A DNA stretch of 48,299 nucleotides from a bacterium (GCA_029932365.1 JAOZQG010000001.1:1-48299); one strand, 5' to 3'; positions 28,231 to 44,059 are shown, numbered from the stretch's first letter. Numbers and translations are program-made. The notes: a model not told the origin generated them from the letters alone.

Positions 28231-28759
28231 CGATTACCTTAAAAAAATGATTTCGGAGTACGCCGACGACGCGCTGGACCTGGACGCAACACGGCAGGTC
28301 AGCGACCTTATCGCGCGAAACCGCGAAGCGGAGGAGTACTTCACCAGGCTGCAATCGCTGCGCCGGCTTACCGCCGAGCGTCTGGGCGATGAGCCCGAGG
28401 ACCCGACGCTGGAACTCAGGATGATGAACGCGCTCAGGCTGCGAAGCTACGAACGGACGTGGTGGGAGCGCGTCTTCGCCTCCCGGGTGCTATCCCCTCG
28501 GACAGCGACCGCGGTGGCGTTTGCGATACTCGTCATCGTGCTGTTCCTCTTTTCCTGGTTCCAGGCGCCGGTAACTCGCTTTCTCTCCGATACCCAGGCC
28601 AAAGTCGAGCGGCTCAGCGATGAAGCCCAGACCGAACTTACCGAGCGGCGGCAGGAACTCACGGAAAGCCTGGGCGAGCTTCTCGCACCGCCTATTTCGG
28701 ACGACGACGAGGACAAGCGTACCGGCAGCACGATGGACCAAGAGGTGTCCGTGGCATGA
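28214..28759 (+). CDS. putative anti-sigma factor, single-pass membrane protein
   Basis: Directly follows and overlaps the ECF sigma gene. N-terminal helical segment, then TM helix AVAFAILVIVLFLFSWF. No zinc-binding Cys/His motif. Start ambiguous: TTG 28175, TTG 28205, GTG 28214 or ATG 28247. Confidence 0.5.
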   Translation: MTELLNDYLKKMISEYADDALDLDATRQVSDLIARNREAEEYFTRLQSLRRLTAERLGDEPEDPTLELRMMNALRLRSYERTWWERVFASRVLSPRTATAVAFAILVIVLFLFSWFQAPVTRFLSDTQAKVERLSDEAQTELTERRQELTESLGELLAPPISDDDEDKRTGSTMDQEVSVA

Positions 28760-29328
28760 GCCGCTGCTTTTACCATCCCGAAATCGAAACTGACGTTCGC
28801 TGCGAAGTGTGCGGCAAGCCCATCTGCGAGCACTGCCGGACCGTCCGCGAAGGGAAGATTATCTGCCCGCGATGTTTGCAGCGGGAAGAACATTCCAGCG
28901 CGAAGAGCACTCGCAGAACTGCCGCTCGCCACGACACGCCAACCTGGATCGGGCTGCTCATTCCCGGCGTGGCGCAGCTGCTGAAGGGCGAAATCTACAA
29001 GGGCTCGCTGCTGCTCGTGTACTTCTTCCTTGCCGCGTTTTCCGACGTGCCGGTTTTTATTTTCCTGGCCTACGGGATTAGCATATGGGACTACTTTTCG
29101 CCGCTGGTAGAGGAAGAGAGGAAAGGACGCGCCCTGATTAACTTCAGGCAGTTCGCCGGAGTGGTGATTTTGCTCGTAGGAGTCGTGTTGCTGGTTCAGA
29201 ATGTCAGCCGGGCGTTCAGCGTATTCTCCCGCGACCTGGCATCTACGCTGGCAGCGGTAGTAACCATCGCCTTCGGGCTGTTCATAATCTGGTATCACCT
29301 GGGTGAGCACCGAAAGGAGGTGCATTGA
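28756..29328 (+). CDS. zinc-ribbon (B-box-like) membrane protein
   Basis: N-terminal CFYHPEIETDVRCEVCGKPICEHCRTVREGKIICPRC (8 Cys/His ligands) followed by 3-4 TM helices. ATGA overlap with the upstream gene. Confidence 0.6.
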   Translation: MSRCFYHPEIETDVRCEVCGKPICEHCRTVREGKIICPRCLQREEHSSAKSTRRTAARHDTPTWIGLLIPGVAQLLKGEIYKGSLLLVYFFLAAFSDVPVFIFLAYGISIWDYFSPLVEEERKGRALINFRQFAGVVILLVGVVLLVQNVSRAFSVFSRDLASTLAAVVTIAFGLFIIWYHLGEHRKEVH

Positions 29329-30272
29329 TGTCTTTCAGGGATATAACCATGCTCGCGCTTCTGCTCGTTATCGGCCTTATTTTCAACCGCTGCGCCTTTC
29401 ACGGCGACGCTATAAATCTAACACACTCCGAGCGAGTGGCACAGCGGACGATCAAGCAGGCCGAGCGGGCGGCGGAACAGGTGACAAGGCAAGCCGAGCA
29501 GGCCGCAAAAGACCTGGAAAGGAGCGCGCAGCGGCTGAACGAGCGGATGGACGAGTTCAGCGAACGCATGGGCGAGTTTGGCGAGCGGATGGGCGAATTC
29601 GGCGAAGAAATCGGTGAAAAGATGGAAAGAGTCGGTGAGCATATAGGCGAGGAGTTCGAGGACGCGGGTGAAGTCCCTGCGGAAGACGCGGCGACGGAGC
29701 TAAACATTGACGTCGCCGCCGAAACGAAAACCGCCAAAGTTACGCTCAGCGTCACTCACGGTCTGGGCGTAGCTCCCAACATTGATCTGGCGCTGGACGT
29801 GCCCGTACTGTGCCGCCAAACGTCGCTTGCTTTCGGGCGGGAGCGGAAAAGGACGCTGAGCATTACTACCATCGGCGGCGACGGGCTGCAATCGCCTGAA
29901 ATCGCACCCGTTGATAGCGAGACCGTCGCGCTTAAGTTCCGCGGAGAGACGCCGCGCGAGCTTAGCTTAGAGCTTCCGCGTAACGTCCCCTACGTGAGAT
30001 TCGCCTTGCCGCAGGCGGTTAAGCTCGCGCTTTCCGAAGATATGCTGCTGATAAAACTGGACGCGCCGGCCGTGGGCTCGCTGAAGGTGACGAGGTCAAA
30101 GAAGCTGCTAACAGTCCGTCACGCCGACTGGACGCTAAATATCAGCGGGATTTCACAGCCGCTGCGGTTTATGGGCCTCGACGGAACGATGTTCGGGGGA
30201 GTCGGGGCCGACCAAAAAGGCGAAGTCGGATTCGGCTTCACCTCACGCGAGAATGAAGGAGGCAGGAAGTGA
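29325..30272 (+). CDS. membrane-anchored coiled-coil/heptad-repeat protein
   Basis: TM anchor ITMLALLLVIGLIF, then an acidic helical region with a 7-residue repeat (ERMDEFS ERMGEFG ERMGEFG ...), then a beta-rich C-terminus. ATGA overlap at 29325. Confidence 0.6.
   Translation: MMSFRDITMLALLLVIGLIFNRCAFHGDAINLTHSERVAQRTIKQAERAAEQVTRQAEQAAKDLERSAQRLNERMDEFSERMGEFGERMGEFGEEIGEKMERVGEHIGEEFEDAGEVPAEDAATELNIDVAAETKTAKVTLSVTHGLGVAPNIDLALDVPVLCRQTSLAFGRERKRTLSITTIGGDGLQSPEIAPVDSETVALKFRGETPRELSLELPRNVPYVRFALPQAVKLALSEDMLLIKLDAPAVGSLKVTRSKKLLTVRHADWTLNISGISQPLRFMGLDGTMFGGVGADQKGEVGFGFTSRENEGGRK
29541..29666 (+). repeat. about six tandem 21-nt (7-codon) repeat units inside the CDS
   Basis: gagcggatggacgagttcagc / gaacgcatgggcgagtttggc / gagcggatgggcgaattcggc / gaagaaatcggtgaaaagatg / gaaagagtcggtgagcatata / ggcgaggagttcgaggacgcg. 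Similarity decays toward the 3' end. Confidence 0.6.
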
Positions 30273-31432
30273 GACACACAACCTTCGGCATTATTTTAAT
30301 ACTTCTCGGGATTTTTCTCGGGCTTTGCTTTTTCGTTCAGGATACGACGTTGGTGCTGCGCCTGTGGCCTCTTTTGATTATCGTCTACGCTATCCTTGCG
30401 CACGGCCTTAATCCTGCGTACAGGGGCGGGCTGATGGTGGTGGCCCTCGTGCTGCTGATGGACGCGTTGGCTCCCAGCATCCTCGGCTCGGGCTACGGCT
30501 GGTTCTGGGCACTGCTCCTTATCTTCGTTGGCCTGCTCATCCTCTTTAGCGCGACGGAGCACGGACCGCATAAAAAGAAGGTTAAAGTCCACCCGGGCCC
30601 ATCTCCGCAGGAAACCCGAAGCGTGAAATTTTCGGTACGTGAAGAAACCGACGAGGGAACTACAGATGCCGACAGTGCATCTACAGTGCGAGGAGGCATT
30701 GAAATGACCGACGAAACCAAACATGAAGGACGCGATACAAATGGTGGGGAAAAAGCGGGCGCGACGGCCGTTGAGGGAGAATACAGCGGCGAAGGAGCAC
30801 ATTTCTTCGCCGACGTGCCCGAGGGCGCGGAACGCCTGATCTGCGACCTGGACTTCAACGCGGGGCGGCTGGAACTTACCGGCGACACCGACAGGCTGTT
30901 TGAAATCGAAACCGGACCCGGCTCCGACGTGGAGCCGCAGGTGGAGGTGACACTGGAGGAAGTAGACGGCGTGCAGGCGGTTAAGCTGCGCATCCACCAG
31001 GCGCACTTCAAGAGCTCCGTGCGCATGTTCGGCGTGCGCACTGAGTGGACACTCAAACTCAATGATCGGTTGCCCTTGACGATGAGCTGCGACATAAACG
31101 CTGCCAAGGCGCATATGGATTTCAGCAAGTTGCGCCTCGTGTCTCTAACGATGGACAACAACGCGGCGGCCAGCGAGGTGCGCATCGGCTCGCGCGAGGA
31201 CGAAGCCAGCCTGGACATTGACAACAACGCGGCCAAGCTGGACCTGGTGTTGCCGGCGGGCTTCGCCTACGAAGCAACGGTGGACAGCAACGTGGGCAAG
31301 CATAATGTCACCGAACTGCTGCCCCGGCGAACGGACGGTCGCTACTTCAGTGACGATTTAGATACCAATCCGCGGAAGATCAAAATGCATCTGGAAAACA
31401 ACGCTGCTAAACTAAACCTGAGGAAGCAATAA
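30269..31432 (+). CDS. LiaF-like membrane protein (LiaI/LiaF-type TM region plus toastrack/DUF2154-like beta-helix)
   Basis: N-terminal 4-TM segment. C-terminal periodic rungs DINAAKAHMDF / MDNNAAASEVRI / IDNNAAKLDLVL / ENNAAKLNL. GTGA overlap with the upstream gene. Confidence 0.65.
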   Translation: MRHTTFGIILILLGIFLGLCFFVQDTTLVLRLWPLLIIVYAILAHGLNPAYRGGLMVVALVLLMDALAPSILGSGYGWFWALLLIFVGLLILFSATEHGPHKKKVKVHPGPSPQETRSVKFSVREETDEGTTDADSASTVRGGIEMTDETKHEGRDTNGGEKAGATAVEGEYSGEGAHFFADVPEGAERLICDLDFNAGRLELTGDTDRLFEIETGPGSDVEPQVEVTLEEVDGVQAVKLRIHQAHFKSSVRMFGVRTEWTLKLNDRLPLTMSCDINAAKAHMDFSKLRLVSLTMDNNAAASEVRIGSREDEASLDIDNNAAKLDLVLPAGFAYEATVDSNVGKHNVTELLPRRTDGRYFSDDLDTNPRKIKMHLENNAAKLNLRKQ

Positions 31433-31436
31433 GGCG

Positions 31437-31871
31437 ATGGCAACCGGAACTACAAAAAGGATTTACCGTTCGCGCAGCGACAAGATTCTGGGCGGCGTGT
31501 GCGGCGGTCTGGCGGAGTACTTCAACATAGATTCGCTGATAGTGCGCGGCATATGGATACTGCTCATCCTCATGGCACATGGGGCCCCGCTGCTCATCTA
31601 CATATTCGCCTGGATACTGATGCCCGTCGAGAAAACAGGGCAGGCCCCAAACAGCGAGCGCCAGATAAAGACTAAAGCCGAAATCACGCCGCAGCACCGG
31701 GGGTTTTTCGTGGGACTGGTGCTAATAATCGTCGGCGTCTTCGCCCTTGCGGGGACTGCCGCGACTTCGTTTGCTTTGCAGATGGTGATAGCTATCGGCC
31801 TGGTTCTGCTGGGAATCCTCGCAATAACCGGCGCATTCAAGAACGGCTTCAACGCGGGAAACGGGAGGTAA
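31437..31871 (+). CDS. PspC-domain membrane protein
   Basis: Canonical PspC motif RIYRSRSDKILGGVCGGLAEYFNIDSLIVRGIWILL. Confidence 0.85.
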   Translation: MATGTTKRIYRSRSDKILGGVCGGLAEYFNIDSLIVRGIWILLILMAHGAPLLIYIFAWILMPVEKTGQAPNSERQIKTKAEITPQHRGFFVGLVLIIVGVFALAGTAATSFALQMVIAIGLVLLGILAITGAFKNGFNAGNGR

Positions 31872-31875
31872 TGCG

Positions 31876-32838
31876 ATGAGCAACCGACATAAGAAAGGCG
31901 ATATCGTAAACAGCCTGTTCTGGGGCACGCTGATTCTGCTAACCGGAGTGACACTTCTGGGAGTTAACACAGGATACGTCAGCGGCCACGTCTGGGGAAA
32001 TTTGTGGAAACTGTGGCCGGTGCTGCTCATCGTCTGGGGCCTGAACATCATACTGCGCAACACCAGCCTTCAGTTCCTCTCATACCTGTCGCCGCTGATA
32101 CTCATACTCGCTTTCGCCTACGCCGCCTGGTGGGCTCCAATTGAGGGCGACAACGGCGGCTGGCACTTCCCGAAGTACATCGGCCTTTCCCGCCCCGAAT
32201 CCCGCGAGGTGCAGGACTACAGCTTCAAGTACAGCCGCAGCGAGGAGATACACGACGTGGATGTTGAGCTTGACCTGGGAGCGGCCAGGTTGTCCGTAGA
32301 ACCGTCCAACGAAGACGCCTTCGTAAACGTGCTGCTTAAAACGAACATCGGCGAACCGACTGTTAATTTCGAGCTGGAGGGCAACACACTTAAGGCCTAC
32401 GCCGCTTCGCCGCGCGGAGGCATCACCTGGGGCGATTACACCCAGGAGTGGCATATCCTGCTGCCCGCAGCCACTCCCGTCAGCCTCAATCTGGACGTTG
32501 GCGCGTCGGATTGCGAACTTGACCTCGCGGACATGCTGCTTACGTATCTGGAAATTGACGCAGGCGCCGCCGCTCTCACGCTGAATCTTCCCGCACCCGA
32601 CGTTGAGGGATACGCGGTTGATCTTGATGTGGGGGCATCGGACCTGAATCTGACGTTTCCCGAGGGTGCGCCGGTACGGATAGACTTTGACGGCGGTCTT
32701 TCATCAACTAACTTCGGACGAGCCGGGCTCAAGAAGGACGATGGATTCTGGTACAGCGAAGCCTATAAGGCGGGAACTCCTTTTGCGGACCTCAGCATTA
32801 CCTCGGGAGTTGCCAGCGTGGACCTGGCCTTCGAGTAG
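31876..32838 (+). CDS. LiaF-like membrane protein, second copy (TM region plus toastrack-like beta-helix)
   Basis: N-terminal TM bundle (LFWGTLILLTGV..., LWPVLLIVWGLNIIL). Periodic rungs LDLGAARLSVE / LDVGASDCELDL / IDAGAAALTLNL / LDVGASDLNLTF. GGGAGG Shine-Dalgarno (SD) site before the ATG. Confidence 0.65.
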   Translation: MSNRHKKGDIVNSLFWGTLILLTGVTLLGVNTGYVSGHVWGNLWKLWPVLLIVWGLNIILRNTSLQFLSYLSPLILILAFAYAAWWAPIEGDNGGWHFPKYIGLSRPESREVQDYSFKYSRSEEIHDVDVELDLGAARLSVEPSNEDAFVNVLLKTNIGEPTVNFELEGNTLKAYAASPRGGITWGDYTQEWHILLPAATPVSLNLDVGASDCELDLADMLLTYLEIDAGAAALTLNLPAPDVEGYAVDLDVGASDLNLTFPEGAPVRIDFDGGLSSTNFGRAGLKKDDGFWYSEAYKAGTPFADLSITSGVASVDLAFE

Positions 32839-32926: not shown

Positions 32927-32935
32927 TGTTATAAT
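32927..32935 (+). promoter_or_regulatory. candidate extended -10 promoter element (TGtTATAAT)
   Basis: TG at 32927-32928 and perfect TATAAT at 32930-32935, 25 nt upstream of the TPR gene ATG. No good -35, which extended -10 promoters tolerate. Confidence 0.35.
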
Positions 32936-32959
32936 GATTTTTCCTGGGAAGTAATTCTG

Positions 32960-35900
32960 ATGGGGATTCTTCGCGTTCTGTCGGAGCTTATAGGAGGCGT
33001 ATCCCTGAAAAAGGCAGCGGAGCTGCTGCGCAGGGGAAAGGCCGAGGACGCGCTTAAGATTATTCAGAAGCTTTCCGAGCAAATGCCCTCCCCTCCGCCG
33101 GACGACAAGCTCGACGAATACGCTGAGCTTCACGCGCAGTGGGGACGTTGCCTGGCCAAGCTCAAGGACCCGGCTGCACTGGAGCATTTTGTCATCTCTC
33201 ACGAAGCCCGGTCCAACGAGTCGTTGCTGCGCGAAGGAGCTATCCTGATCGAAGAGCTGGGTTTGGTCTCGCCCCAGGCGACGGATTACATACTGCGTCT
33301 ATCCAAGCTGACCGAAGGCGAAAAGGGATTCCTGCTGAGCTACGCGAAGGAACTTGTCGGCGACGGCGATGTTACGCTGGACGACACCGAATTCGAGCTT
33401 GTCGTGGAGGCCAGCAAGGCTTTCACCCTGTGGAAGGGTGGAAGCAGCCTGATCGCCGACAGATTCCTCGCCCAGGGACGCGAGGACGAAGAAGCCATCG
33501 AGATCTACCGCATAGCGTATCCTACGCGCAAGAACGATGAAAAGCTGGTCAACGTTGTGCTCTCTCACCTTATTGCTGACAGCGAGCGCAGCGACTTCGC
33601 AGCGACGCTGTATCGCGACCTGCTGGACTCCGGGCAGGAGAACGATGACGCGCTGCGCCTGCTGGCCGAATACTACGTGGAGCAGCACGAGGTCACTCCC
33701 GGCACCATAGATTACATAACCAAGGCTCTTGAAAAGAAGCTGCCGCGACGCGACGTGCTGGAGAGCCTGGCTGCATACCTGCTTAAAACAAGGAAAGAAT
33801 TCCTGGACAAGAAGAAGCTCCTGCTTCTCGTGTTCCGCGCGGGTTACTTCAATAAAAACGTCCTCGCCTTCCTGGCGCAGGCCTTCGCCGAGGAGGGCAA
33901 CTTCAGCGACGAAGCCCTGATGGCCTACGAGGAGGCGCTGAAGAATAACCTGCTCACCAAGCGCATCACGCTGGTGCTGACCGAGCATTTCCTCGGCGAG
34001 GACCGGCGGGACGAGTTCGCCTGCAAGGTATACGAGCACTATCTGGGAGCGTGGCCCGAGCGTAAAACGCCCCGGCTGTACGCGCTGCTGGCCGCGACCT
34101 ATGTAGAAAAGAAGCGGATAGACGAACAGGCGCAGTCCATTTACGAAAGCACGCTCGCTCATGATCCGAGCAACTCGGAAATCCTTCCCCTGCTTGCCGC
34201 CAGTTACCTCACGTATGAAACCCGCCAGCCCAAAGCGTACTCGGTTTACGAGCGCGCCTTCCCCTACATCGAAGACGAAGAGATTCGCAACCGCATCGCT
34301 TTGCTGCTTGCCGAGCACCGGATAGAGGACGGCAACTACGACAAACGCACCCTCGATTACATCGAGCTGGCCCTGCAGTCCGCGACCGGCGAACGCAGAG
34401 AGCGGCTCTACGAGGCTCGCACGAAGTGCTTCCTGACGCTTAACCGACGCGACAAAGAAGCCGTAAAGGTCTATCTGGACCTTTACAACGAGCTGGGCGA
34501 GGAGCGAACAGAGGACGTCAGGCTCATAGCCATCCTCTCCGACATCCTCATCGAGAAGCCGGAAGAGGTCGATATTGAAGAGGGTCTGCGAAGACAGATT
34601 TTTTACGAGCGCTTCGAGAACGAGAAATTCAGCTGCCCGAAGAACATCGCCTTTTACTTGCTGGACCACGTACTCAGAGAAAATCCGGATTACAAGTACC
34701 GCATACACCTGGCGGTCCGCTGCCTGGAGGCTGACAGCGGGCACCTGGCCGACAAGCTGAAAGAGGCGGGAGAGCTGGATACGTTGCAGCTCGTCGGCCG
34801 CTTCTACCTTGAACGGTACAACTACGAGCTTGCCGCCCGTGCGTATTCCGTGGCCAACGAATACCACCACACGGAGGAAAACGATTATCAGCTGGCGAAG
34901 ATCCGCCTGTATGAAGGTAAAACGGAGCAGGCGCTGGCCCTGTTAGAAAAAGTGAAATCCGAGGAGAAAACGCCGCACGTCCTCTACTGGCGGGCGGCGG
35001 CATACCAGCAGGAAACAAGGCCCGACAAGGTAACGCCGCTGATTAAAAAGCTGGAACAGGAGGCCGATTCAATCCCCGAAGTGCTAATCAAACTGCGCAA
35101 GGGCCTTAACGCCGAACTGCTGGGAGACTACGGCGACGCGGTGGAGCTCTACAACGAATTGCTCGACAGCCCGGGGAGCATGCCCTACCGGCGCTGGGTG
35201 GACATTGAAATCGGGCTGGCGCTCTGGCGCATGGGCGCGACCGCGGAAGCGGAGAAAAAGCTCGGCGAGGTCTACCGTTATAATCCCAACGGCCGGGCGG
35301 AGCAGCGCAACTACTCCTACATCCTAGTTCTGCACGGCTTCGAACTAATACAGGAAGGAAAGTGGGAAGACGCATTAAACAACTTTCTCGAAAGCGTCGA
35401 AGCAAACCGAAACGACCGCCTGCTAAGAAGCGTTATCGTTGATTTACTGCTCAACTACGCCAAACGGTTCTTCTTTGACAGCGAATACGAGAGAGCGGTG
35501 CAGATTCTTGAGGTCGCACACCGCATCCTGCCGAAGAGCATCGAGGCCAAGACCTATCTGGCCTACTCCTACCACCTGCTTAGTCAATATGCGAAGGCGC
35601 TTATCTACTACCGCGACATCACCTGGACGACAGATGCACCGACACTGGAACGGTCGCAAGCTTACTGCTACCTGCAAAATAAGCAAACCCGTAAGGCCTG
35701 GCGGGTTTTTCTGGACCTCAAGCGGCGCGGAACCCTGCTGCCGGCGAATATCCCGCTGCTACTGGACGCCTATCTTTCCGATAAAGAACAGGAAGGAAGC
35801 GAAACATTCAAGGAGTTTGAATTCCCCGAGGACGTGAAAAGCCCCATTCCCTTCGCGGCGTTCTACATCCACGACGGTTTGCACGACCGCGCGCTGGAGC

Positions 35901-36934
35901 TTCTTACCAAGCACGCCAAAGGCGATTTGCAGGAGATGCAGCGCTTGTGGTTTCTGGGAAAAGCCTCAGCGAAGAAAGGTGACCGCAAACTGGCGGTGAC
36001 CTACTGGAAGCAGCTGCTAAAGGCATCGCAGAGCCGGCCCACCCACGATGAAACCAAGCTCTCCCAGCTTCTCGAAATCGGGCTCGCGTTTTTGCAGGCG
36101 GGCTACGCCCAGGAAGCAATGGAGACGTGGGAAGACCTCAAGAAGCTCGACGAAAAGTTTCAGCACCTGCCGAAGCTTTATGCCTACACGCTTAACCTAA
36201 ACGCTTACACCCTCGCGCAGAAGGACAACCTGAAGCTCGCCATCGCCGAATGGGAAAAAGCCATTGAATACGACCCGGACAACCTGGCCATTCTGCAGAA
36301 CATGGCTATCGCCTATATGGCGGCTGAGGAATTCGACCTATCCGCACTGCACTGGCGTAAACTGATGAGCCGCTGGAAGGTCATGATAGACCGTGACCCG
36401 CACATCCATGCTCATCTCACGGTCGCGATGGGCGAAGTGGAACGGGTGCTGTCAGACGTGTTCGTCGCCAAGATGCAGGAAGCGGACGAGGCATACGTCG
36501 CCAAGACCGAAGAGATGGTGGATTACTACCAGAAGGCGAATCAATTCTACTGGATACTGGGGCTCAACAAGAACGCCACGAAAGGGCAGATAGAAAAAAG
36601 CTACTTCAGGCTGGTCAAGATATTCGACCCGGAGCGCCACGCGTCCGACTTCATGCTGCTTGAAGACGCTTACGCGAATCTTACCAATCCACGCAAGCGG
36701 GAGCGCATCGACATATTCGCCTACAATCCGGTGGACGCGGGCAGGCTGCGCCAGATCGTGCTGGGAGACCGACGTGTGGGTTCGGTGTTTGAAGAGTTAA
36801 ACCTGCACGTTACGGTTCCTGGGCCGGACTATTCGCAGCTTGAACCCGATGACACTCCTCCCGAAGAAATAATCGCCAAACTGGCCGACTCGATACAGAT
36901 TTACTTCAAGCTGGGAGACATATCCGTAGTATGA
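32960..36934 (+). CDS. giant TPR-repeat protein with C-terminal J-like domain lacking HPD
   Basis: 1324 aa of helical-repeat sequence with recurrent A..Y..AL / W...A...Y TPR-like patterns. The C-terminus FYWILGLNKNATKGQIEKSYFRLVKIFDPERHASDFMLLEDAYANLTNPRKRERID matches the J-domain helix I-III layout. Confidence 0.8.
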   Translation: MGILRVLSELIGGVSLKKAAELLRRGKAEDALKIIQKLSEQMPSPPPDDKLDEYAELHAQWGRCLAKLKDPAALEHFVISHEARSNESLLREGAILIEELGLVSPQATDYILRLSKLTEGEKGFLLSYAKELVGDGDVTLDDTEFELVVEASKAFTLWKGGSSLIADRFLAQGREDEEAIEIYRIAYPTRKNDEKLVNVVLSHLIADSERSDFAATLYRDLLDSGQENDDALRLLAEYYVEQHEVTPGTIDYITKALEKKLPRRDVLESLAAYLLKTRKEFLDKKKLLLLVFRAGYFNKNVLAFLAQAFAEEGNFSDEALMAYEEALKNNLLTKRITLVLTEHFLGEDRRDEFACKVYEHYLGAWPERKTPRLYALLAATYVEKKRIDEQAQSIYESTLAHDPSNSEILPLLAASYLTYETRQPKAYSVYERAFPYIEDEEIRNRIALLLAEHRIEDGNYDKRTLDYIELALQSATGERRERLYEARTKCFLTLNRRDKEAVKVYLDLYNELGEERTEDVRLIAILSDILIEKPEEVDIEEGLRRQIFYERFENEKFSCPKNIAFYLLDHVLRENPDYKYRIHLAVRCLEADSGHLADKLKEAGELDTLQLVGRFYLERYNYELAARAYSVANEYHHTEENDYQLAKIRLYEGKTEQALALLEKVKSEEKTPHVLYWRAAAYQQETRPDKVTPLIKKLEQEADSIPEVLIKLRKGLNAELLGDYGDAVELYNELLDSPGSMPYRRWVDIEIGLALWRMGATAEAEKKLGEVYRYNPNGRAEQRNYSYILVLHGFELIQEGKWEDALNNFLESVEANRNDRLLRSVIVDLLLNYAKRFFFDSEYERAVQILEVAHRILPKSIEAKTYLAYSYHLLSQYAKALIYYRDITWTTDAPTLERSQAYCYLQNKQTRKAWRVFLDLKRRGTLLPANIPLLLDAYLSDKEQEGSETFKEFEFPEDVKSPIPFAAFYIHDGLHDRALELLTKHAKGDLQEMQRLWFLGKASAKKGDRKLAVTYWKQLLKASQSRPTHDETKLSQLLEIGLAFLQAGYAQEAMETWEDLKKLDEKFQHLPKLYAYTLNLNAYTLAQKDNLKLAIAEWEKAIEYDPDNLAILQNMAIAYMAAEEFDLSALHWRKLMSRWKVMIDRDPHIHAHLTVAMGEVERVLSDVFVAKMQEADEAYVAKTEEMVDYYQKANQFYWILGLNKNATKGQIEKSYFRLVKIFDPERHASDFMLLEDAYANLTNPRKRERIDIFAYNPVDAGRLRQIVLGDRRVGSVFEELNLHVTVPGPDYSQLEPDDTPPEEIIAKLADSIQIYFKLGDISVV

Positions 36935-37638
36935 AACGGACGCGGAAAAGCGATTCTATTCTACGACGGGCCGCCAGCCGCGTTGACTTCAGTTCGGAGC
37001 AACATTACAATCTAGTATTCGGCCTGGGAAGCAGGGGCGCGCCAGTCGCCCCCAAGGGGGATGTGTCCGGACACAGCCTGTACGAATACCAGACCGAGCT
37101 AAATCGTATTCGCATCGAGCTGTTTCGTTTGCAGCGGAATGTGAAAAATTTGCAGCTGCCGGCGCTGGAGGTTGTAGGACTTGACCGCGTCGGCGAGGAC
37201 CTTGACGGCTTAAAAGCGGAACTTCGCAGGCTTCTCGGCAAGGTGGAAAACGTAGCGAACCTGGACCCTATAAGGTCCGCCATTGAGGGATTCCTGGAAG
37301 TCGCGGATTCGTGCGAACGAGTGCTCGCGTCGGCGCGAAGCACCGAGGGGATTCCCCAAAGCGTCCTGACGGGCGTGGAGTCCATCTACCGGTTACTGCT
37401 TGCCAAGCTGAAGAGATTCGGCGTGGAGCCGATACCGGAAAGCGAGATGTTTGACCCTAACCGGCATATGGCGATAGCGACGGTGAAAGACCCCGCCAAG
37501 CCCGACGGGGCCATCTCGCAGGTTCAGCTTAGCGGTTACACGCTGGGGGACAAAGTGCTGCGCGCCGCGCAGGTCGTCGTAGTGCGCAATCGTCCCGGCG
37601 AGAGCGTGGAGAAGGGCAAGGCCAACTCGAAATTATAG
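36931..37638 (+). CDS. grpE: divergent GrpE-like nucleotide exchange factor
   Basis: C-terminal GrpE signature FGVEPIPESEMFDPNRHMAIATV...GYTLGDKVLRAAQVVVV. The N-terminal long-helix region is poorly conserved. ATGA overlap with the TPR gene. Confidence 0.65.
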   Translation: MKRTRKSDSILRRAASRVDFSSEQHYNLVFGLGSRGAPVAPKGDVSGHSLYEYQTELNRIRIELFRLQRNVKNLQLPALEVVGLDRVGEDLDGLKAELRRLLGKVENVANLDPIRSAIEGFLEVADSCERVLASARSTEGIPQSVLTGVESIYRLLLAKLKRFGVEPIPESEMFDPNRHMAIATVKDPAKPDGAISQVQLSGYTLGDKVLRAAQVVVVRNRPGESVEKGKANSKL

Positions 37639-37646
37639 GAGATATC

Positions 37647-39395
37647 ATGACGCAAATTGTTGGAATCGACTTGGGAACCACTAACTCCCTGGTTGCCGCG
37701 GTCATTGACGGCAAGCCTACGCTAATCCCTAACGAGCGCGGCAAGTTTATTACTCCTTCCGTAGTCGGGTTCACCGACACAGGTGAACTGCTCGTGGGCG
37801 ACCCGGCGAAGAACCAGGCGGTAGCCAATCCCGAACGCACAGTTACCAGCATCAAGCGCCTGATGGGCACCGACCGCCGCATCGTAATCGGGGAAAAGGA
37901 GTATTCGCCGCAGGAAATCTCCGCGGTCATCCTCAAGAAGCTGAAGCTCGACGCGGAGACGTACCTCGGTTCGGTGGTGAACGAGGCCATTATTACTGTG
38001 CCCGCGTACTTTACGGACGCGCAGCGGCAGGCCACTAAGGACGGAGGCGAAATCGCGGGATTTAAAGTGGAGCGCATCATAAACGAGCCCACCGCGGCGG
38101 CCCTGGCCTACGGCTTCGACAAGGGCGCGGAGGCGAAGACCATCCTTGTCTACGACCTCGGCGGCGGCACGTTCGACGTTTCGCTTATCCGGTTGGTCGA
38201 GGGCGCTTTCAAGGTTCTTGCCACTACCGGCAACAACAACCTAGGCGGCGACGACTTCGATTACCGTGTTGTGGAATACCTTATCGAGCGCTTCAAGGAC
38301 AAGGAGAAGGTCGACCTGAAGAATATCCCCGACGTGTCGCAGCAGCGCGCCATCCTTCAGCGCCTGAAGGAAGCCGCCGAAACGGCCAAGATCGACCTCT
38401 CGTCGCTTCTGGAAACGGAGGTTAACCTTCCGTTTATTTATACGGAGGGCGAGGAACCGCTTCACATGCACGAAACTCTGACCCGGGCGAAATACGAGGA
38501 ACTGGTATCCGACCTGGTGGAGCAGACCCAGCAGCCGATACAGCTTGCGCTATCCGATGCGAATCTGACGCCCGAGCAGGTTGACGCCATAATCTTAGTA
38601 GGCGGTATGACGAGAACGCCCATGGTGCAGCGGCTGGTTCGGGAAGAACTGGGTAAAGAAGCGCTCAAAGACATTAATCCTGAAGAATGCGTCGCCATGG
38701 GCGCGGCCATACAGGCTGGTATCAAGCGGGGATCGCTGGAGGAGTTCGTCGTCGTGGACGTTGCGCCGTTCACCCTCGGCATTGAAACCGAGGGCGACAA
38801 GTTCTCCCGCATCGTCCCCCGCAACACCGCCATACCTTGCTCGCGCAAGAGCCTTTACCGCACCACGGTGGACGCCCAGACCGAAGCGCTCATTCACGTG
38901 CTGCAGGGCGAAAGCGATAAAGCTTCGCAAAACGAATCACTGGGCGAATTCATACTCTCCGAGATCACGCCGGCGCCCCGGGGAGAATCGCTGGTTGAGG
39001 TCTTTTTCGACTACGACGTGAACGGAATCGTGAAAATCACCGCCAAAGACCGCAAGACCAGCCAGGGCAAGTCCATCACGATTAAGGCGTCCAAGAAGCG
39101 CCTTACGACCGACGAAGTGGCCCACGCCCAGCGCGATGTGAGCCGCCATACCGGCTCTATGCTGGCGCAGCGTGAGCGCTCTAAGGTGCTGTATGAAGCG
39201 GAGAATACGCTCAAGGACCTTACCGCGCTCATTCGCGCCGCCGAGAAGGGTGAAAAGAAAATTGACAGCCTTGAAATCTCCCGCCTTAGCGAGATGGCCA
39301 ACAAGATTAAGGAGGCTCTCAAATCCGAGGAACTCACCCTGCTGGAAGAACACATTGAGAAGGCCACAGGCCTAATCGCGGATTATTCCTACTAG
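37647..39395 (+). CDS. Hsp70-family chaperone, short HscC-like form
   Basis: IVGIDLGTTNSLVA, TVPAYFTDAQRQATKDGGEIAGF, RIINEPTAAALAYG, DLGGGTFDVS, LVGGMTRTPMV and DVAPFTLGIET. 582 aa with a shortened lid. TLIPNERGKFITPSVV resembles E. coli HscC (LIPN) rather than DnaK. AGGAGA SD site. Confidence 0.9.
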   Translation: MTQIVGIDLGTTNSLVAAVIDGKPTLIPNERGKFITPSVVGFTDTGELLVGDPAKNQAVANPERTVTSIKRLMGTDRRIVIGEKEYSPQEISAVILKKLKLDAETYLGSVVNEAIITVPAYFTDAQRQATKDGGEIAGFKVERIINEPTAAALAYGFDKGAEAKTILVYDLGGGTFDVSLIRLVEGAFKVLATTGNNNLGGDDFDYRVVEYLIERFKDKEKVDLKNIPDVSQQRAILQRLKEAAETAKIDLSSLLETEVNLPFIYTEGEEPLHMHETLTRAKYEELVSDLVEQTQQPIQLALSDANLTPEQVDAIILVGGMTRTPMVQRLVREELGKEALKDINPEECVAMGAAIQAGIKRGSLEEFVVVDVAPFTLGIETEGDKFSRIVPRNTAIPCSRKSLYRTTVDAQTEALIHVLQGESDKASQNESLGEFILSEITPAPRGESLVEVFFDYDVNGIVKITAKDRKTSQGKSITIKASKKRLTTDEVAHAQRDVSRHTGSMLAQRERSKVLYEAENTLKDLTALIRAAEKGEKKIDSLEISRLSEMANKIKEALKSEELTLLEEHIEKATGLIADYSY

Positions 39396-39417
39396 TACGG
39401 GTATACTGGTTGGCGAA

Positions 39418-40041
39418 TTGCTGTTGGCGCAGCTGAAAGAATGTCCCGTATGCCGCGGCGAGCTTTCCGGTCGCCCGGAGAAGTGCCCCGGGTGCGGCGT
39501 GGAACTTACGCCTTACTACGAGCAATTAGACGAGGCCAATAAGGCACTCGCTGAAGCCTTCAACGCCGCAACCCGGGGAGAGTTCGAGCACGCACGCGAG
39601 ATGGGAAGCAAGGCTCAGGCCATAATCCCGCTGGTTGAGGACCAGGTGTCGCTGTTACACGTTCGTATCGCCATCGGGGAACGGAGGCTCGCCGACGCCT
39701 GGGAAAAAGCCGAAAGCCTTCCAGACACCGTGCGAGAGAAATCGGAACTGCTTCACGAGATTGCGTCGCTGCACGAACTCGAGACAAGCGGCAAGCAGCA
39801 CTTCAATCTGGCGCTGACTTCCGCGTGCCACGAGTATTACGCCGACGCCTCCTACCACATCGAGCGGGCGGTCGAACTGATTCCCTATATCCCAGCGGTC
39901 TGGCGTTTGGCGGTGAAGATCGAGCTCAAACGTAGGAGATACGACTTTGCACGGAAGTACCTAGAGCAGGGCGTGCAGATGTTTCCAAACGAAAGATACC
40001 TCGCTTCGCTTGCTGAGGAGCTGAACCGCGACAACGCCTAA
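39418..40041 (+). CDS. zinc-ribbon plus TPR-like helical protein
   Basis: CPVCRGELSGRPEKCPGCG zinc ribbon at the N-terminus, then helical repeats. TTG start without a clear SD site, so the start is uncertain. Confidence 0.5.
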   Translation: MLLAQLKECPVCRGELSGRPEKCPGCGVELTPYYEQLDEANKALAEAFNAATRGEFEHAREMGSKAQAIIPLVEDQVSLLHVRIAIGERRLADAWEKAESLPDTVREKSELLHEIASLHELETSGKQHFNLALTSACHEYYADASYHIERAVELIPYIPAVWRLAVKIELKRRRYDFARKYLEQGVQMFPNERYLASLAEELNRDNA

Positions 40042-40117: not shown

Positions 40118-40148
40118 AAAAAGGGGCGCACCCCCTAGGGCACGCCCC
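40118..40148 (-). terminator. rho-independent terminator for the 40172..42952 gene
   Basis: On the minus strand, GGGGCG (complement of 40143-40148) pairs with CGCCCC (complement of 40123-40128) around a 14-nt loop with an inner CCC/GGG pairing. A T5 run follows (plus-strand A run 40118-40122). Confidence 0.55.
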
Positions 40149-40171: not shown

Positions 40172-42952
40172 CTAGTCTATGTTGGCCGCTGCTTCGATGT
40201 ACAGCTGCCTTACAGTGGACACGAGACCGTTCGCGGTCTCGCCTCCGATAATCCACACCGTATCGTTGGGCAGTGGATTACCGTCCTCGTCCAAATAGCT
40301 GAACAGGGCGACCGATCCTGCACCTGCACGCCCCTGCGCCGGTCCAACCGTCCCGGACCAGACATAAGTGTCGGGGTTGAATACTTCAGATGCGTTAACG
40401 AACTCAGGAGCGCCCTGGTCCTGGGGATAATTGACTCCGCCATAAACGTAGATCTTCCCCTGGATAATCTCCGCAGCAGCGCCGGCGCGGGCGTACTTCA
40501 TATCCGGCATAGCCTCCCAGCCGCCCGTATCTAGACGCACTCTCTCCACCGTTCGCGTACTCACGCCGGAGTTGTTGCGTCCTCCAATGGCATACAGGTA
40601 CGGGAAGTCGAGAACCAATGCGAAGTCGTAGCGCGGAGTCGGCATCGCACTGACAACCCCGCTAAACCAAGCATTGTCTCCAGGCCTGAATACCCAACTG
40701 GTTCCACTCACGAATTCACTCGGCGGGTCGCCTTGCAGTCCGCCCATCAAGATAAGCGACGATCCGCCACCGTAAGCTATGCCACGGATAGAGGGCATCA
40801 GCCTTAGCTGCGTGTTATTGTTGCCAATTGAGCCAACTGTCGTCCACGGCACGACCGGGTAATCCGTGCTGTCACCGTCGAAGCTCGGCAGCATCTCCAC
40901 CACGGAAAGCGTCTGGTCGCTGCTGTTTATTCCGCCAATCGCGTAGATGCCGGTCGAATTCGTACCTCGAGTGAGGCTGCCCAGCGGCTCGGCAGCCAGC
41001 TGACCTCGCGGCGTGGACAGGGGCAAGCGATCACTAACGCTCACCTGACTCGCCCAATTTCCAGCGCCCATCAGATATTCCTGCTTTATAAGCTGGACAC
41101 TACGCAGGGCAACGTTGCCATCCATACCGCCGATGAGAAACACCCGCCGCCCGACCAAGAAGTCGTCGGTCAGGTCTCCGTCCGTACCGTTATCATCAAT
41201 GACGGTCACCGCCGCCGCACCGAAGTCGCGCCGTGCCTGGAGGGGGTCTCCTGTGGGACCCGGATTGATATCGCGGCTGACCACAAACGACAGCGGCACG
41301 TTGTCAGTACGGCTGGTTAGTTCAAGCCCGCCCTCAGAGACAACTATGACCCTAGTACGAACGCCCTTGTAGCCAGGCAGCAGAGCGGCCGGATATTCAA
41401 TCTCGAATATGGCTTCCGCTATGTTGCCGGGTTGCTCAGTAATCCCCACTCTGGCCACGCTGGTTGCGCCCGGATCTTCATCAAGGTCGACATCTTCGTA
41501 ATTCCCGTCGTAGTCGGGATCCCACTCCAGCGTCTGGTCGTAAATCGGACTCTCCTCAGTGCCCTCGTTGATATCCTCTGCCCATACGCCGTCGCCGAGA
41601 ATGTCAATCTGGAAACGATAACTGTCCGGCCCTTCCGAGCCGCTGGCAAGCACCCGGAAGTGAACCGTCCTGCTGCTTCCCTGCGGAATGGCAGCGCTCT
41701 GCTCGGCGTAGTTGCCGTCGTTATCCACCGCGTAAGCGCCATCACCGTCGATATCAACCAGAGTCTCTGTAATCAGGGGATTCACCACCGGCTCATATGC
41801 CCGGTCCACCACGCGAACCGGCCATTCAAGATGCACTATCTGGCCGATACCGTCCACGAAGTGGAGCGCAAGAGTGAAATTGCGCGAAACGTGGCCGAAC
41901 GTTTTATAAGGATTGACCGAGATATTCAGGTCGGCATCGTAGTATGGCACGGATACCGAAGTCGTATTGGCGTCGTAGACACCGTCATTGGTGAAATCCC
42001 AGTAAAAGCCGTACGGCAGCACGCCGGGATGGTCCGGGTCCACCGTTACGCTGGCGTTCATCGCCGGTTCCCGCTCGTCGACATCGTCGCTGCTCGAATC
42101 GAATTCAATCAGGATTGACCCATCGGACCTGATCGGGGGAGAGGAATTCACGATAAGCTCCGGAGGCCCCGTAGGCTCTTCCGGCAATTCCTTGATGACC
42201 GTCAGGGGGAACTGGCGCGTTATTGAGTAATCGTTGGCATCCGTTACCGTGAGCTTAATCACGTAGGCCTCGGACTCACCTTCCAGCACGGTGAACGTGT
42301 ACTGCGGATTCTGCTGGGTCGAGTCTGTCCGCCCGTCACTGTCGAAGTCCCACTGGTAGCGGTACGGAGGAGTTCCGGGATTCTGCGGGTCGGGGAACAC
42401 GCGGCAGTAAATCGGCTCTCCCGAAAGGTAGACATAAATTGGCTCCCCTTCCTGGTCGTAGCCGATCACATTGTCGCTAATTATGCGGGTTAGCGTAGAA
42501 TCGAGCGCAAACTGCGGTTCGTCCGTGACGAGAATAGACACCGGCTCGCTGGTGCGAACCACGCCGGCATCATCCCTTACTCTGACCACGCCCTGGTACA
42601 GAGACGACCCCTGCTCGATGTCAGCATCCCGCAGGTAATACAGGTGGTAAGCCTGCTCCGTGCGTCTCGCGACCTCGTTGACGTAGAAGTCGAACGCCCC
42701 GTCATTGTCGAAGTCCCACATATAGGTGAACGGGAGCTCGCCGCCGGCTATAGTGACAATAAAGTTGACACCCAAGGGCGAGCCGCCGGTAGTGGGAGAT
42801 GCAGTATACGTGACGATCCTCAGATCGCTATCGTCATCGTCACCACCCGCCTGGCTTGGCAGGGTTACATTCCCCTTGTTGCCGCCGCCGCCACAAGCGG
42901 CGACGGCAACGATGAGTATCACCAGAGCGCAAATTACTCTCAGCACTTTCAT
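40172..42952 (-). CDS. surface lipoprotein with PKD-like repeats and a C-terminal Kelch-type beta-propeller
   Basis: ATG at 42952 lies 9 nt after GGGAGGA and gives lipobox VAVAAC followed by a Gly run. PKD-like WDF motifs: YMWDFDNDGAFD, YQWDFDSDGRTD, FYWDFTNDGVYD. Kelch-like blades: IYAIGG, LILMGG, LYAIGGRNNSG, IYVYGG, VWIIGG. Confidence 0.8.
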   Translation of the reverse strand: MKVLRVICALVILIVAVAACGGGGNKGNVTLPSQAGGDDDDSDLRIVTYTASPTTGGSPLGVNFIVTIAGGELPFTYMWDFDNDGAFDFYVNEVARRTEQAYHLYYLRDADIEQGSSLYQGVVRVRDDAGVVRTSEPVSILVTDEPQFALDSTLTRIISDNVIGYDQEGEPIYVYLSGEPIYCRVFPDPQNPGTPPYRYQWDFDSDGRTDSTQQNPQYTFTVLEGESEAYVIKLTVTDANDYSITRQFPLTVIKELPEEPTGPPELIVNSSPPIRSDGSILIEFDSSSDDVDEREPAMNASVTVDPDHPGVLPYGFYWDFTNDGVYDANTTSVSVPYYDADLNISVNPYKTFGHVSRNFTLALHFVDGIGQIVHLEWPVRVVDRAYEPVVNPLITETLVDIDGDGAYAVDNDGNYAEQSAAIPQGSSRTVHFRVLASGSEGPDSYRFQIDILGDGVWAEDINEGTEESPIYDQTLEWDPDYDGNYEDVDLDEDPGATSVARVGITEQPGNIAEAIFEIEYPAALLPGYKGVRTRVIVVSEGGLELTSRTDNVPLSFVVSRDINPGPTGDPLQARRDFGAAAVTVIDDNGTDGDLTDDFLVGRRVFLIGGMDGNVALRSVQLIKQEYLMGAGNWASQVSVSDRLPLSTPRGQLAAEPLGSLTRGTNSTGIYAIGGINSSDQTLSVVEMLPSFDGDSTDYPVVPWTTVGSIGNNNTQLRLMPSIRGIAYGGGSSLILMGGLQGDPPSEFVSGTSWVFRPGDNAWFSGVVSAMPTPRYDFALVLDFPYLYAIGGRNNSGVSTRTVERVRLDTGGWEAMPDMKYARAGAAAEIIQGKIYVYGGVNYPQDQGAPEFVNASEVFNPDTYVWSGTVGPAQGRAGAGSVALFSYLDEDGNPLPNDTVWIIGGETANGLVSTVRQLYIEAAANID

Positions 42953-42997
42953 CAGGTTACGTCCTCCCAACCATCGGGATCACGAACTTCCGGCTTT

Positions 42998-44026
42998 CTA
43001 CGGCCGGTAATGCTCAACAATAGTATCCATACCCATCTGGGTTAGCCCGCCGATAATGTAAAAGTCCCCGCCGGGCGTGTAGAACTCGTTATACACCTTA
43101 GTCTGGGTAGCACCCACCCAGCCGCGAGGCACCAATCTCGTAGGCGCCAGCGATAATGAGCCATTCTCCAGGACGTCGTAGACTGAGCCCGTGTAACCGT
43201 CAATGGTGCGACCACACATCTGCCGATAGACCGTGCCGCGGTCGTCAACCTGCCAGCCGGCAGCCTGTCCGGCAGCGGCTTCAGGCACGCTGGCCACAGT
43301 TCTCCACGAACCCATTACCGGGTTGTTGACACTATCAAAGGTGTATTCATCCACCTGGGAAATGTAGTTGCCGTTTCGGTCGAATCCGCCGACCACTACG
43401 ATGCGCCACGGCTCGTCAGTAAGCTTGTCGGGCAGGGTTACAAACGCGCTGTGGTAGGCACGCTCAATCGGCATTTCTGAGACGAGAGAGTAATCTCCTG
43501 CTCTAGGTTCACCTTCCTCGCGCTCAGGCGGTTCCTGCCAGACATTGAACCAGCGCATTGCGTTAGTCGGCACGCCGCTATCCGTAATGCCGCCGAGGAT
43601 GAACACGTAGCAGTACGGCCCTTCCGGCCACACCGGAGGCGGGATGATATTTCCCTTCGACTCGAGAGCTACCGCAGCATGCCCGTAGAGCGGTTCGGGA
43701 AGCGGATTCAGGGGCGCCGCGTTCTGACCACCACCGCCGCCGCCGCCCGGCGGACGGTCCGGTACCTGAGGTATGTTAGCGCATGGGCCGTTCTGCGGCA
43801 GCCAGTCGTAGTCAATCAACATATAACGGTCTGACCAAATATCAGTCTGAGCGTTCACGAACTGCGCAATCGGCTCACCCGTCGCCGGATCAAACAGGAT
43901 GGGGAACATATCCTCGGTACCGTAAGTCTCAGGATAGTATTTCTGAACCACATCCAGCGGATTGCCGGAATCGTCACGACCGCCGAACACGTAAGCTACG
44001 GGAACACCGTAGCCACCCCTACTCAA
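42998..44026 (-). CDS. Kelch-repeat segment, probably the 3' continuation of 44060..46045 rather than an independent gene
   Basis: Blades AYVFGGRDDSG, VFILGGITDSG, VVVGGFDRNGNY and FYIIGG. No signal peptide. TTG start with no SD site, buried in a hairpin. Same frame as the upstream ORF. Confidence 0.55.
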   Translation of the reverse strand: MSRGGYGVPVAYVFGGRDDSGNPLDVVQKYYPETYGTEDMFPILFDPATGEPIAQFVNAQTDIWSDRYMLIDYDWLPQNGPCANIPQVPDRPPGGGGGGGQNAAPLNPLPEPLYGHAAVALESKGNIIPPPVWPEGPYCYVFILGGITDSGVPTNAMRWFNVWQEPPEREEGEPRAGDYSLVSEMPIERAYHSAFVTLPDKLTDEPWRIVVVGGFDRNGNYISQVDEYTFDSVNNPVMGSWRTVASVPEAAAGQAAGWQVDDRGTVYRQMCGRTIDGYTGSVYDVLENGSLSLAPTRLVPRGWVGATQTKVYNEFYTPGGDFYIIGGLTQMGMDTIVEHYRP

Positions 44027-44046
44027 GGCCCAACCTGGGCCTAAGT
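44021..44046 (-). promoter_or_regulatory. candidate recoding (SECIS-like) hairpin downstream of the in-frame UGA
   Basis: mRNA ACUUA-GGCCCA-[GGU]-UGGGCC-U(U)GAGU: 11 bp with one bulged U. It starts 13 nt after the UGA at 44062-44060 and has a GGU apical loop. Folded by hand only. Confidence 0.3.
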
Positions 44047-44059
44047 CTGGACGCGGCTG

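Follow-up and report, generated by a model that had tools for sequence, protein, structure and literature searches.

Introduction

What kind of chaperone system is encoded when a GrpE gene and an Hsp70 gene lie between the gene of a giant tetratricopeptide repeat (TPR) protein and that of a small zinc-ribbon protein? This question is raised by a 48,299-nucleotide stretch of bacterial DNA (GCA_029932365.1, JAOZQG010000001.1:1-48299; the whole stretch is called the window below). Four open reading frames (ORFs) of the window, all in one direction, encode in this order products of 1324, 235, 582 and 207 amino acids (aa), here named TPR-J, GrpE, Hsp70 and g4, and the four genes together are referred to as the cassette. 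An earlier note on this DNA regarded the cassette as a specialised Hsp70 machine that differs from the ordinary grpE-dnaK-dnaJ operon, with an HscC-like Hsp70 and a possible link to envelope stress. Apart from HscA and HscC, the DnaK paralogues of bacteria were recently described as unexplored 'dark matter' (PMC13580251). We describe the conservation of the cassette, the residues at the predicted contact between its Hsp70 and its J-like domain, and the alternatives to the reading that we favour with moderate confidence, namely that the cassette is a dedicated, self-contained DnaK-type chaperone module separate from the ordinary DnaK/DnaJ network.

Results

Conservation of the cassette across lineages

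The order TPR-J, GrpE, Hsp70, g4 was kept across several lineages of uncultured bacteria, in four different chromosomal contexts. Within the window's clade, the four genes and their flanks were syntenic, with a LiaF-like gene upstream and Kelch/PKD genes and efp downstream. Elsewhere, the cassette adjoined rbfA (locus L022, Hsp70 74% identical to that of the window), groES-groEL (L023/L024, 71%) or the ATPase gene of a type II secretion system (T2SS; L030, 67%). When L022, L023 and L030 were compared with the window, identity was 67–74% for Hsp70, 34–40% for TPR-J, 35–49% for GrpE (the value of 49% applying to 74 residues only) and approximately 30% for g4. Such low identities combined with the same gene order indicate that the order has outlived a long divergence. 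A metagenome scan with the signature of the J-like domain yielded 31 loci, in 23 of which TPR-J was at least 35% identical. GrpE and Hsp70 came next in the same order at all 23, as did g4 wherever the contig reached that far and g4 was detectable. The gene-neighbourhood survey that the earlier note had proposed therefore showed the four-gene linkage to be conserved in relatives beyond local synteny.

Word-index searches detected 12 homologues of TPR-J (all of approximately 1324 aa) and 12 of g4, from close relatives only; the wider TPR-J family was seen by an exhaustive HMMER search and by the metagenome scan. TPR-J was present in 9 of 185,579 species representatives, all of them metagenome-assembled genomes (MAGs) that bear the label 'bacterium' or 'Planctomycetales bacterium', isolate 4484_113 among them. 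Among 1.84 billion representatives, the exhaustive search recovered approximately 19 clusters of the family at E≤1e-30, mostly with proteins of approximately 1300 aa. The TPR-J family is real but rare.

Reduced versions of the cassette were also found. GrpE, Hsp70 and g4 occurred without TPR-J at L025/L026, L028 and L031, always followed by genes for a SpoU methylase, MeaB and methylmalonyl-CoA mutase, so that g4 is kept after Hsp70 in both the four-gene and the three-gene versions. GrpE and Hsp70 made up a two-gene version at L027, and Hsp70 stood alone or after an 802-aa protein of no known identity at L029 and L032.

A DnaK-type Hsp70 with a reversed J-docking surface

The Hsp70 comprises a complete nucleotide-binding domain (NBD), linker, beta part of the substrate-binding domain (SBDbeta) and lid (Pfam HSP70, 618 bits). 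It scored above the cut-off of the NCBIfam DnaK model NF001413 (686.8 vs 648 bits, aligned over residues 1–573) and below that of TIGR02350 (668.1 vs 822.55 bits). Identity amounted to 49% with Escherichia coli DnaK, 38% with HscA, 35% with HscC and 52% with the DnaK of Thermosinus, which has no NBD insert. Over residues 1–60, the segment that had been likened to HscC in the earlier note, 31 of 60 positions matched DnaK and 26 of 60 matched HscC. HscC is recognised by a 4–8-residue insertion in L1,2, a 9-residue deletion in helix B and the loss of the GrpE signature loop, which is deleted in HscA as well (PMC8215388). The cassette Hsp70 has neither the L1,2 insertion in SBDbeta nor the helix-B deletion in the lid, both of which E. 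coli HscC displayed in the same alignment, and its GrpE loop (E. coli residues ~276–302) is of full length without a gap. NBD residues 76–101 are deleted as in HscC, but also as in the Thermosinus and Geobacillus DnaKs, and because this insert is missing from many non-proteobacterial DnaKs the deletion is not diagnostic of HscC (PMC8215388). On these sequence criteria the Hsp70 is DnaK-type, not HscC-like; assignment to the HscC class was ruled out by identity and by the three structural signatures. The lid, which had been described as shortened, proved to be complete, since the DnaK model runs to residue 573. The protein is shorter than E. coli DnaK because it lacks a 24-residue NBD insert, also absent from the Thermosinus, Geobacillus and Mycobacterium DnaKs compared, and the disordered acidic C-terminal tail.

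The catalytic and allosteric residues K70, E171, D194, T199, D201, P143, D148 and R151 are the same as in E. coli DnaK, and the linker reads FVVVD. The surface that receives the J-domain is altered. In the DnaK-DnaJ complex, R22, K26, R27, K48 and K51 of DnaJ dock on E206, D211, E217 and D477 of DnaK, whereas H33 bonds to the linker and D35 to R167 and Q378 (PMC8215388; for residue roles at this contact see also PMC5519331). In the window protein, as in 117 of 120 relatives listed (P0013-P0129 and P0131), E206 is replaced by Arg or Lys (in a few cases Gln) and E217 by Lys, and the linker residue L391 is Val or Ile. Two of three acidic docking residues have thus become basic. Both positions are Glu in E. 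coli DnaK, HscC, the Thermosinus DnaK (P0132), P0130 and the Geobacillus and Mycobacterium DnaKs of the Protein Data Bank (PDB), and E217 is also Glu in the single eukaryote-type Hsp70 alignment displayed. Unchanged are R167, N170, T173, Q378, P419 and D477, and an acidic residue (Glu) is kept near 211. The closest hits, of 597–605 aa, were considered as canonical Firmicutes DnaKs, which would have turned the cassette Hsp70 into an ordinary orthologue, and rejected as such, because they share the R/K...K reversal and the C-terminus of the subfamily. No report of the E206/E217 reversal was found in the open-access text searched, which included PMC8215388 and PMC13580251, although absence from the literature is not proven thereby.

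Further changes mark the Hsp70 subfamily as a whole. Lid helices A and B are rewritten. In the nucleotide cleft, K55, V59, E264 and E267 are kept, whereas R56 is replaced by Asn and L257 by Ala or Ser. The cleft is said, after Brehmer et al. in 2001, to be closed by the salt bridges K55-E267 and R56-E264 and by a hydrophobic patch of V59 and L257, so that the lower salt bridge and part of the patch would be missing. These changes may raise intrinsic nucleotide exchange, and the co-encoded GrpE suggests that exchange is still assisted.

The C-terminus differs with the version of the cassette. In the lineages sampled with TPR-J, the Hsp70 ends in LIADYSY, ILSDWGL, FLRDFGQ.. or MIADYAR, which conform to an aromatic pattern [DE][YWF][SGA]x. 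Most lineages sampled without an adjacent TPR-J have LSDA[DE]... instead, P0078 (L031) has no such motif, and canonical DnaKs carry an acidic disordered tail. In all lineages sampled, the aromatic C-terminus went together with TPR-J.

The J-like domain of TPR-J

TPR-J matched the Pfam models TPR_19, TPR_2 and DnaJ (PF00226), the last at 34.9 bits against a cut-off of 27.8. The large TPR protein had been termed J-like in the earlier note, and it does possess a J-type domain, though one without the His-Pro-Asp (HPD) motif. A D-P-E triplet is aligned under the H-P-D of DNAJB12, DNAJA3 and DnaJ, with PDB J-domain matches down to E=1.7e-6. In an alignment of 17 family members (17–84% identity), the position of H33 was occupied by Asn in 12, Asp in 3, Gly in 1 and Thr in 1, and by His in none; P34 was invariant, and D35 was replaced by Glu in 17/17. 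The docking residues were changed as well: R22 to Glu (15/17), K26 to Phe (17/17), K48 to Met (15/17) and K51 to Glu (17/17), which leaves R27 as the only one retained of the five basic residues. R27 was invariant, and so were R36 and, in the fold core, Y25, F47 and Y54. Conservation within TPR-J is highest in the J-like domain, which accounts for 12 of the 23 invariant columns, whereas the rest of the family is 17–40% identical; this indicates that the domain is under selection and not a relic.

An AlphaFold2 (AF2) model of TPR-J residues 960–1324 (pLDDT 77.6) consisted of TPR helices, followed by the helices of the J-like domain (pLDDT 84–90) and a poorly predicted tail. The best PDB match of these 365 C-terminal residues in Foldseek was human P58(IPK)/DNAJC3 (E=3e-4). 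Its TM-scores were low (0.2–0.27), so that the match concerns the architecture only, not the detailed geometry. 'DnaJ-TPR' is a recognised architecture of class C J-proteins, and the dedicated HscC partners DjlB and DjlC have an HPE variant of the motif (PMC10410713).

More distant TPR-J-like proteins were seen at L056-L063; they are of approximately 1300 aa and carry an xPE[RK][HY]P motif. At L060 (3731-8532), such a gene is followed by a GrpE gene only and then by rimM-trmD, and at L063 (8305-12264) its neighbours are a SpoIIE/HATPase gene on one side and an IS200-like transposase gene on the other.

GrpE and g4

The cassette GrpE matched Pfam GrpE (PF01025) with 93.1 bits at residues 102–218 (model positions 48–164 of 165), a match to the C-terminal four-helix bundle and beta-domain, was 27% identical to E. 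coli GrpE and fell below the cut-offs of all NCBIfam GrpE equivalogs (best 70.9 vs 194 bits). PheS, EF-P and HutH of the window pass their equivalog cut-offs in NCBIfam, indicating that the divergence of the lineage in general does not put its proteins out of reach of such models. The first 100 residues, which the Pfam match does not cover, are specific to the family, and their motifs VDFxSExxY and LRIELFRLQRNVxNLxLPALEVVGL are conserved across cassette lineages. These observations agree with the description in the earlier note of a divergent GrpE with an atypical N-terminus.

The fourth gene, which closes the operon, encodes the zinc-ribbon and helical-repeat protein that had been described, with CPVC...CPGC followed by the repeats. 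No Pfam or NCBIfam model matched g4 above threshold; the only matches, to generic zinc ribbons, were sub-threshold. In the AF2 model (pLDDT 77), a small N-terminal ribbon precedes nine helices, and a Foldseek comparison with the PDB returned generic TPR domains (MamA, SGT, Hop and CHIP), the best at E=0.048 and none at E≤0.001. The proposal that the Cys-rich element of DnaJ had moved to this protein did not hold: g4 has two CPxC pairs only, lacks CxxCxGxG repeats and gave no DnaJ_CXXCXGXG match at E≤0.1. An escort protein of the Hep1/Zim17 family was likewise rejected, as there was no zf-DNL match in Pfam at E≤0.1, and an analogy of function to Hep1/Zim17 is possible.

The g4 start given in Table 1 is a TTG codon at 39418. 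Just upstream, at 39382-39417 of the window, the g4 frame encodes the peptide TSTGILVxELLL, which is kept in relatives whose g4 is of 219–221 aa. The true start is therefore probably an ATT or CTG at 39382-39406, a few codons upstream, and would overlap the stop of the Hsp70 gene, implying translational coupling. The g4 proteins of L023 (11767-12513) and L030 (8907-9608) have a hydrophobic, transmembrane-like C-terminal tail, which the window's g4 does not have, and may be anchored in the membrane.

Transcription signals of the cassette

The arrangement reported in the earlier note was reproduced by reading the sequence: four co-directional genes follow an extended -10 element, TGTTATAAT, the TPR-J stop overlaps the GrpE start in an ATGA (36931-36934), and an 8-nt gap separates GrpE from Hsp70, with AGGAGA before the Hsp70 ATG. 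The consensus TGnTATAAT was kept before the first gene by each of the nine loci from the window's clade and by L023, so that the element is no mere chance match. A sigma-70 scan made no call at TGTTATAAT, which lacks an accompanying -35 hexamer. Genes that overlap or lie close together, and the conserved -10 element, indicate a single transcription unit. At L012, L014 and L016, a GC-rich hairpin with a T-run lies approximately 40–60 nt upstream of the TPR-J start, directly before TGnTATAAT. In these three relatives the hairpin suggests that the upstream operon terminates and that the cassette initiates as a separate transcription unit. At the other end of the window's cassette, the hairpin at the boundary with the convergent Kelch gene has its T-run on the minus strand, and no T-run follows it on the plus strand.

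Neither a class A DnaJ gene nor hrcA is part of the cassette. As for heat-shock control by HrcA, no CIRCE site with up to 3 mismatches was found in the window, L022 or L023, including the promoter region of the L023 groES-groEL operon. This candidate was set aside, although the result says nothing on heat-shock control in these lineages, since even the groES-groEL promoter of L023 is without CIRCE.

Table 1. Coordinates of features in the cassette region of the window
Feature	Position	Strand	Basis
Extended -10 promoter element, TGTTATAAT	32927..32935	+	sequence read; 25 nt 5' of the TPR-J ATG
TPR-J, 1324 aa; all-helical TPR-type solenoid, C-terminal J-like domain, conserved C-terminal tail	32960..36934	+	ORF; Pfam
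J-like domain, residues 1196-1251	36545..36712	+	Pfam DnaJ; aligns to solved J-domains
D-P-E at the HPD position, residues 1223-1225	36626-36634	+	alignment
GrpE-type nucleotide exchange factor, 235 aa	36931..37638	+	Pfam GrpE
LPALEVVGL of the GrpE N-terminal region	37156-37182	+	motif
DnaK-type Hsp70, variant subfamily, 582 aa	37647..39395	+	Pfam; NCBIfam; alignment
Charge-reversed J-docking strand of the NBD, LIRLVEGAFKV: R182 (E. coli E206), K189 (E217)	38190..38213	+	alignment
C-terminal motif LIADYSY-COOH of Hsp70	39372..39392	+	alignment of lineages
g4, 207 aa; zinc ribbon, then TPR-like helical repeats	39418..40041	+	ORF; AF2
CPVC...CPGC of g4, residues 9-26	39442-39495	+	sequence
GC-rich hairpin at the boundary of the cassette and the convergent Kelch gene	40121..40136	.	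terminator-like call on minus strand

Genes surrounding the cassette

The operon upstream of the cassette in the window (27643-32838) encodes an ECF sigma factor, two LiaF-TM/toast-rack-like membrane proteins, a PspC-domain protein and three proteins without a Pfam match, one of them an apolipoprotein-like coiled coil. The earlier note had taken this neighbourhood as a hint at envelope stress. The hint is not borne out, because the LiaF/PspC operon stands beside the cassette in the window's clade only, and the link was rejected. Downstream, three convergent genes on the minus strand (40172-46045) encode large Kelch-repeat and PKD-domain proteins of 932, 342 and 661 aa. These genes, after which come efp and a gene for an Xaa-Pro peptidase-like protein, are syntenic in relatives. 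Elsewhere in the window, the first half of a 562-aa ORF (17803-19491) resembles UmpA and the second half UmpB, subunits of a Na,Li,K/H+ antiporter, both below the cut-off; from its sequence, this ORF looks like a fused two-subunit transporter. ORFs of 996 aa (11074-14064) and 453 aa (1701-3062) had no NCBIfam match at E≤1e-5.

Discussion

A putative dedicated Hsp70/J pair

The view of the earlier note that this is not an ordinary grpE-dnaK-dnaJ operon is upheld by the conserved four-gene linkage, the J-type TPR protein and the altered interface residues on both sides. We propose the following mechanism. The Hsp70 would run a normal ATP/ADP cycle with GrpE-driven nucleotide exchange, since its catalytic and allosteric residues and its GrpE loop are intact and a divergent GrpE is co-encoded. 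The J-like domain of TPR-J would dock at the usual site formed by the NBD, the linker and SBDbeta, through a rewired interface. As charges are changed on both of two surfaces that normally attract each other, with two of three acidic residues made basic on the Hsp70 and four of five basic residues lost or reversed on the J-like domain, we infer that the interface is co-adapted and orthogonal, and the altered residues would fit a dedicated pair. Such rewiring would keep the TPR protein off canonical DnaK and canonical DnaJ off the cassette Hsp70; exclusion of canonical DnaJ is, judging from the residues, probable. By analogy with P58(IPK)/DNAJC3 and DNAJC7, the TPR solenoid could be a platform that recognises clients or sites, which would give TPR-J a scaffolding or targeting role. 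The protein g4 might be a second adaptor, in some lineages one anchored in the membrane. The Hsp70 might use its aromatic C-terminus as a TPR docking peptide, as suggested by the co-variation of this C-terminus with TPR-J, by the presence of two TPR proteins in the cassette and by analogy with the eukaryotic EEVD peptide.

In its most elaborate form, the proposal is of an orthogonal interface with three parts: inverted electrostatics of J docking, xPE in place of HPD on a 1,300-residue TPR scaffold, and an aromatic C-terminal peptide that docks into the co-encoded TPRs. The cassette would then be a prokaryotic counterpart of the EEVD/TPR system, parallel to and insulated from the housekeeping DnaK/DnaJ. 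We put this forward as a speculative extension, which is rather unlikely to hold in all its parts.

Comparison with known systems

With the canonical hrcA-grpE-dnaK-dnaJ system, the cassette has in common a DnaK-type Hsp70, a GrpE gene directly upstream and a J-type partner in the same operon. It differs in the absence of a class A DnaJ and of hrcA/CIRCE, in an additional zinc-ribbon/TPR gene, in a J-type domain without HPD, placed towards the C-terminal end of a TPR protein of 1324 aa, and in an Hsp70 whose acidic J-docking residues are reversed and whose tail is replaced by a short conserved motif. HscC with DjlB and DjlC is likewise a specialised Hsp70 that has dedicated class C J-proteins only, with J-domains that depart from HPD (HPE) and with NBD residues 76–101 deleted. 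However, HscC needs no GrpE and has no GrpE loop, whereas the cassette has both; the L1,2 insertion and helix-B deletion of HscC are without counterpart in the cassette Hsp70; and DjlB and DjlC keep the His that the TPR-J family has lost.

DNAJC3/P58(IPK) and DNAJC7/TPR2 resemble TPR-J in that TPR repeats precede a C-terminal J-domain in one polypeptide, but they are of approximately 500 aa, have a canonical HPD and no operon context. Pam16/Tim16 also has a J fold without the catalytic His-Pro-Asp. It is small, membrane-associated and paired with the J-protein Pam18, whereas the cassette co-encodes no second J-protein and TPR-J keeps the Pro and an acidic residue. Docking of EEVD to the TPRs of Hop, CHIP, SGT and Tom70 in eukaryotes offers a likeness in the conserved extreme C-terminal peptide of Hsp70, given that the cassette co-encodes TPR proteins and that g4 and TPR-J both had weak structural matches to generic TPR co-chaperone domains. 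The cassette motif is [DE][YWF][SGA]x instead, no carboxylate-clamp residues were identified, and such docking would be hypothetical here.

Alternative explanations

Several observations weigh against a dedicated module. The Hsp70 exceeds the NF001413 cut-off and is called DnaK in public records, and only a handful of canonical Hsp70 sequences served as the baseline for its docking surface. The charge reversal is shared by the three-gene, two-gene and solo versions, in which no TPR-J is adjacent, so that it marks a wider Hsp70 subfamily and is not tied to TPR-J alone. The distant TPR-J-like proteins (22–28% identity) have no Hsp70 nearby. Finally, in all systems tested, ATPase stimulation was lost when the His or the Asp of HPD was replaced (PMC8215388), so that the J-like domain may bind without activating.

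The first two of these observations bear on the main rival, in which the cassette is the housekeeping grpE-dnaK operon encoding the lineages' only Hsp70, accessory TPR genes have taken the places of hrcA and dnaJ, and a DnaJ with HPD is encoded elsewhere. Besides the DnaK score and the annotation, this would account for the order grpE-dnaK, the intact catalytic and allosteric residues and GrpE loop, the high conservation of the Hsp70 (67–96%) and the stable position among the core genes recA, rny and efp in the window's clade. From the cassette genomes, no second canonical dnaK appeared among the 120 listed Hsp70 matches, although whole MAGs were not read. The docking surface speaks otherwise, since E206 and E217 are basic here and E/E in every canonical Hsp70 inspected. 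Moreover, the cassette Hsp70 shares only 52% identity with a canonical DnaK that lacks the NBD insert, its lid helices and C-terminus are specific to the subfamily, and in other lineages this variant Hsp70 stands by itself or beside unrelated genes. Derived DnaK paralogues have been reported never to occur without a bona fide DnaK (PMC13580251). Because of the reversed surface, the TIGR02350 score below cut-off and this survey of paralogues, we consider a housekeeping operon unlikely, while giving it real weight.

A second alternative concerns the J-like domain, which would be non-activating: the TPR protein would hold or regulate the Hsp70 or another J-protein, as Pam16 does for Pam18, and the true J partner would be encoded elsewhere. 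The lack of the HPD His in 17/17 family members, with the loss of stimulation upon HPD substitution cited above, agrees with this possibility, as do the existence of HPD-less J-like regulators (Pam16/Tim16) and the three-gene and two-gene versions that have no adjacent TPR-J. Yet P34, the acidic residue at 35, R36 and the core of helices II and III are strongly conserved, as would be expected of a working Hsp70 contact, and HPE J-domains are found in the HscC partners DjlB and DjlC, of which DjlC stimulates HscC (PMC10410713, PMC8215388). No second J-protein was present in any cassette, and a purely non-activating role appears improbable on the whole. Conflict systems include large TPR proteins and STAND/Hsp70-like ATPases, and the cassette of L022 adjoins IS1595 transposases and a methyltransferase/Mrr gene, but a mobile conflict or defence system with an Hsp70-like ATPase and TPR sensors is highly implausible and was rejected, because no PADLOC model matched any of the four proteins, no effector domain is present, the Hsp70 is complete with substrate-binding domain and lid, and the cassette has a stable place among housekeeping genes throughout the clade.

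Implications

Parts of the dedicated module that we favour have precedents, namely the class C architecture of TPR plus J, the HPE J-domains of DjlB and DjlC, and the HPD-less J-like Pam16. In the open-access text searched, which cannot prove absence, we found no bacterial cassette that unites a DnaK-type Hsp70, its own GrpE, a giant TPR protein with an xPE J-like domain and a zinc-ribbon TPR protein. To our knowledge, TPR-J and g4 would be the first candidate TPR co-chaperones of a bacterial Hsp70. In functional J-domains, HPD is treated as a signature that is always present and cannot be dispensed with. The cassette is a compact, conserved system that pairs a complete DnaK-type motor with a J-like domain lacking HPD, the two bearing reciprocal changes at their predicted interface. 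It therefore bears on how the specificity of Hsp70/J pairs is coded, on how parallel chaperone systems are insulated from each other, and on whether ATPase activation can happen without the His.

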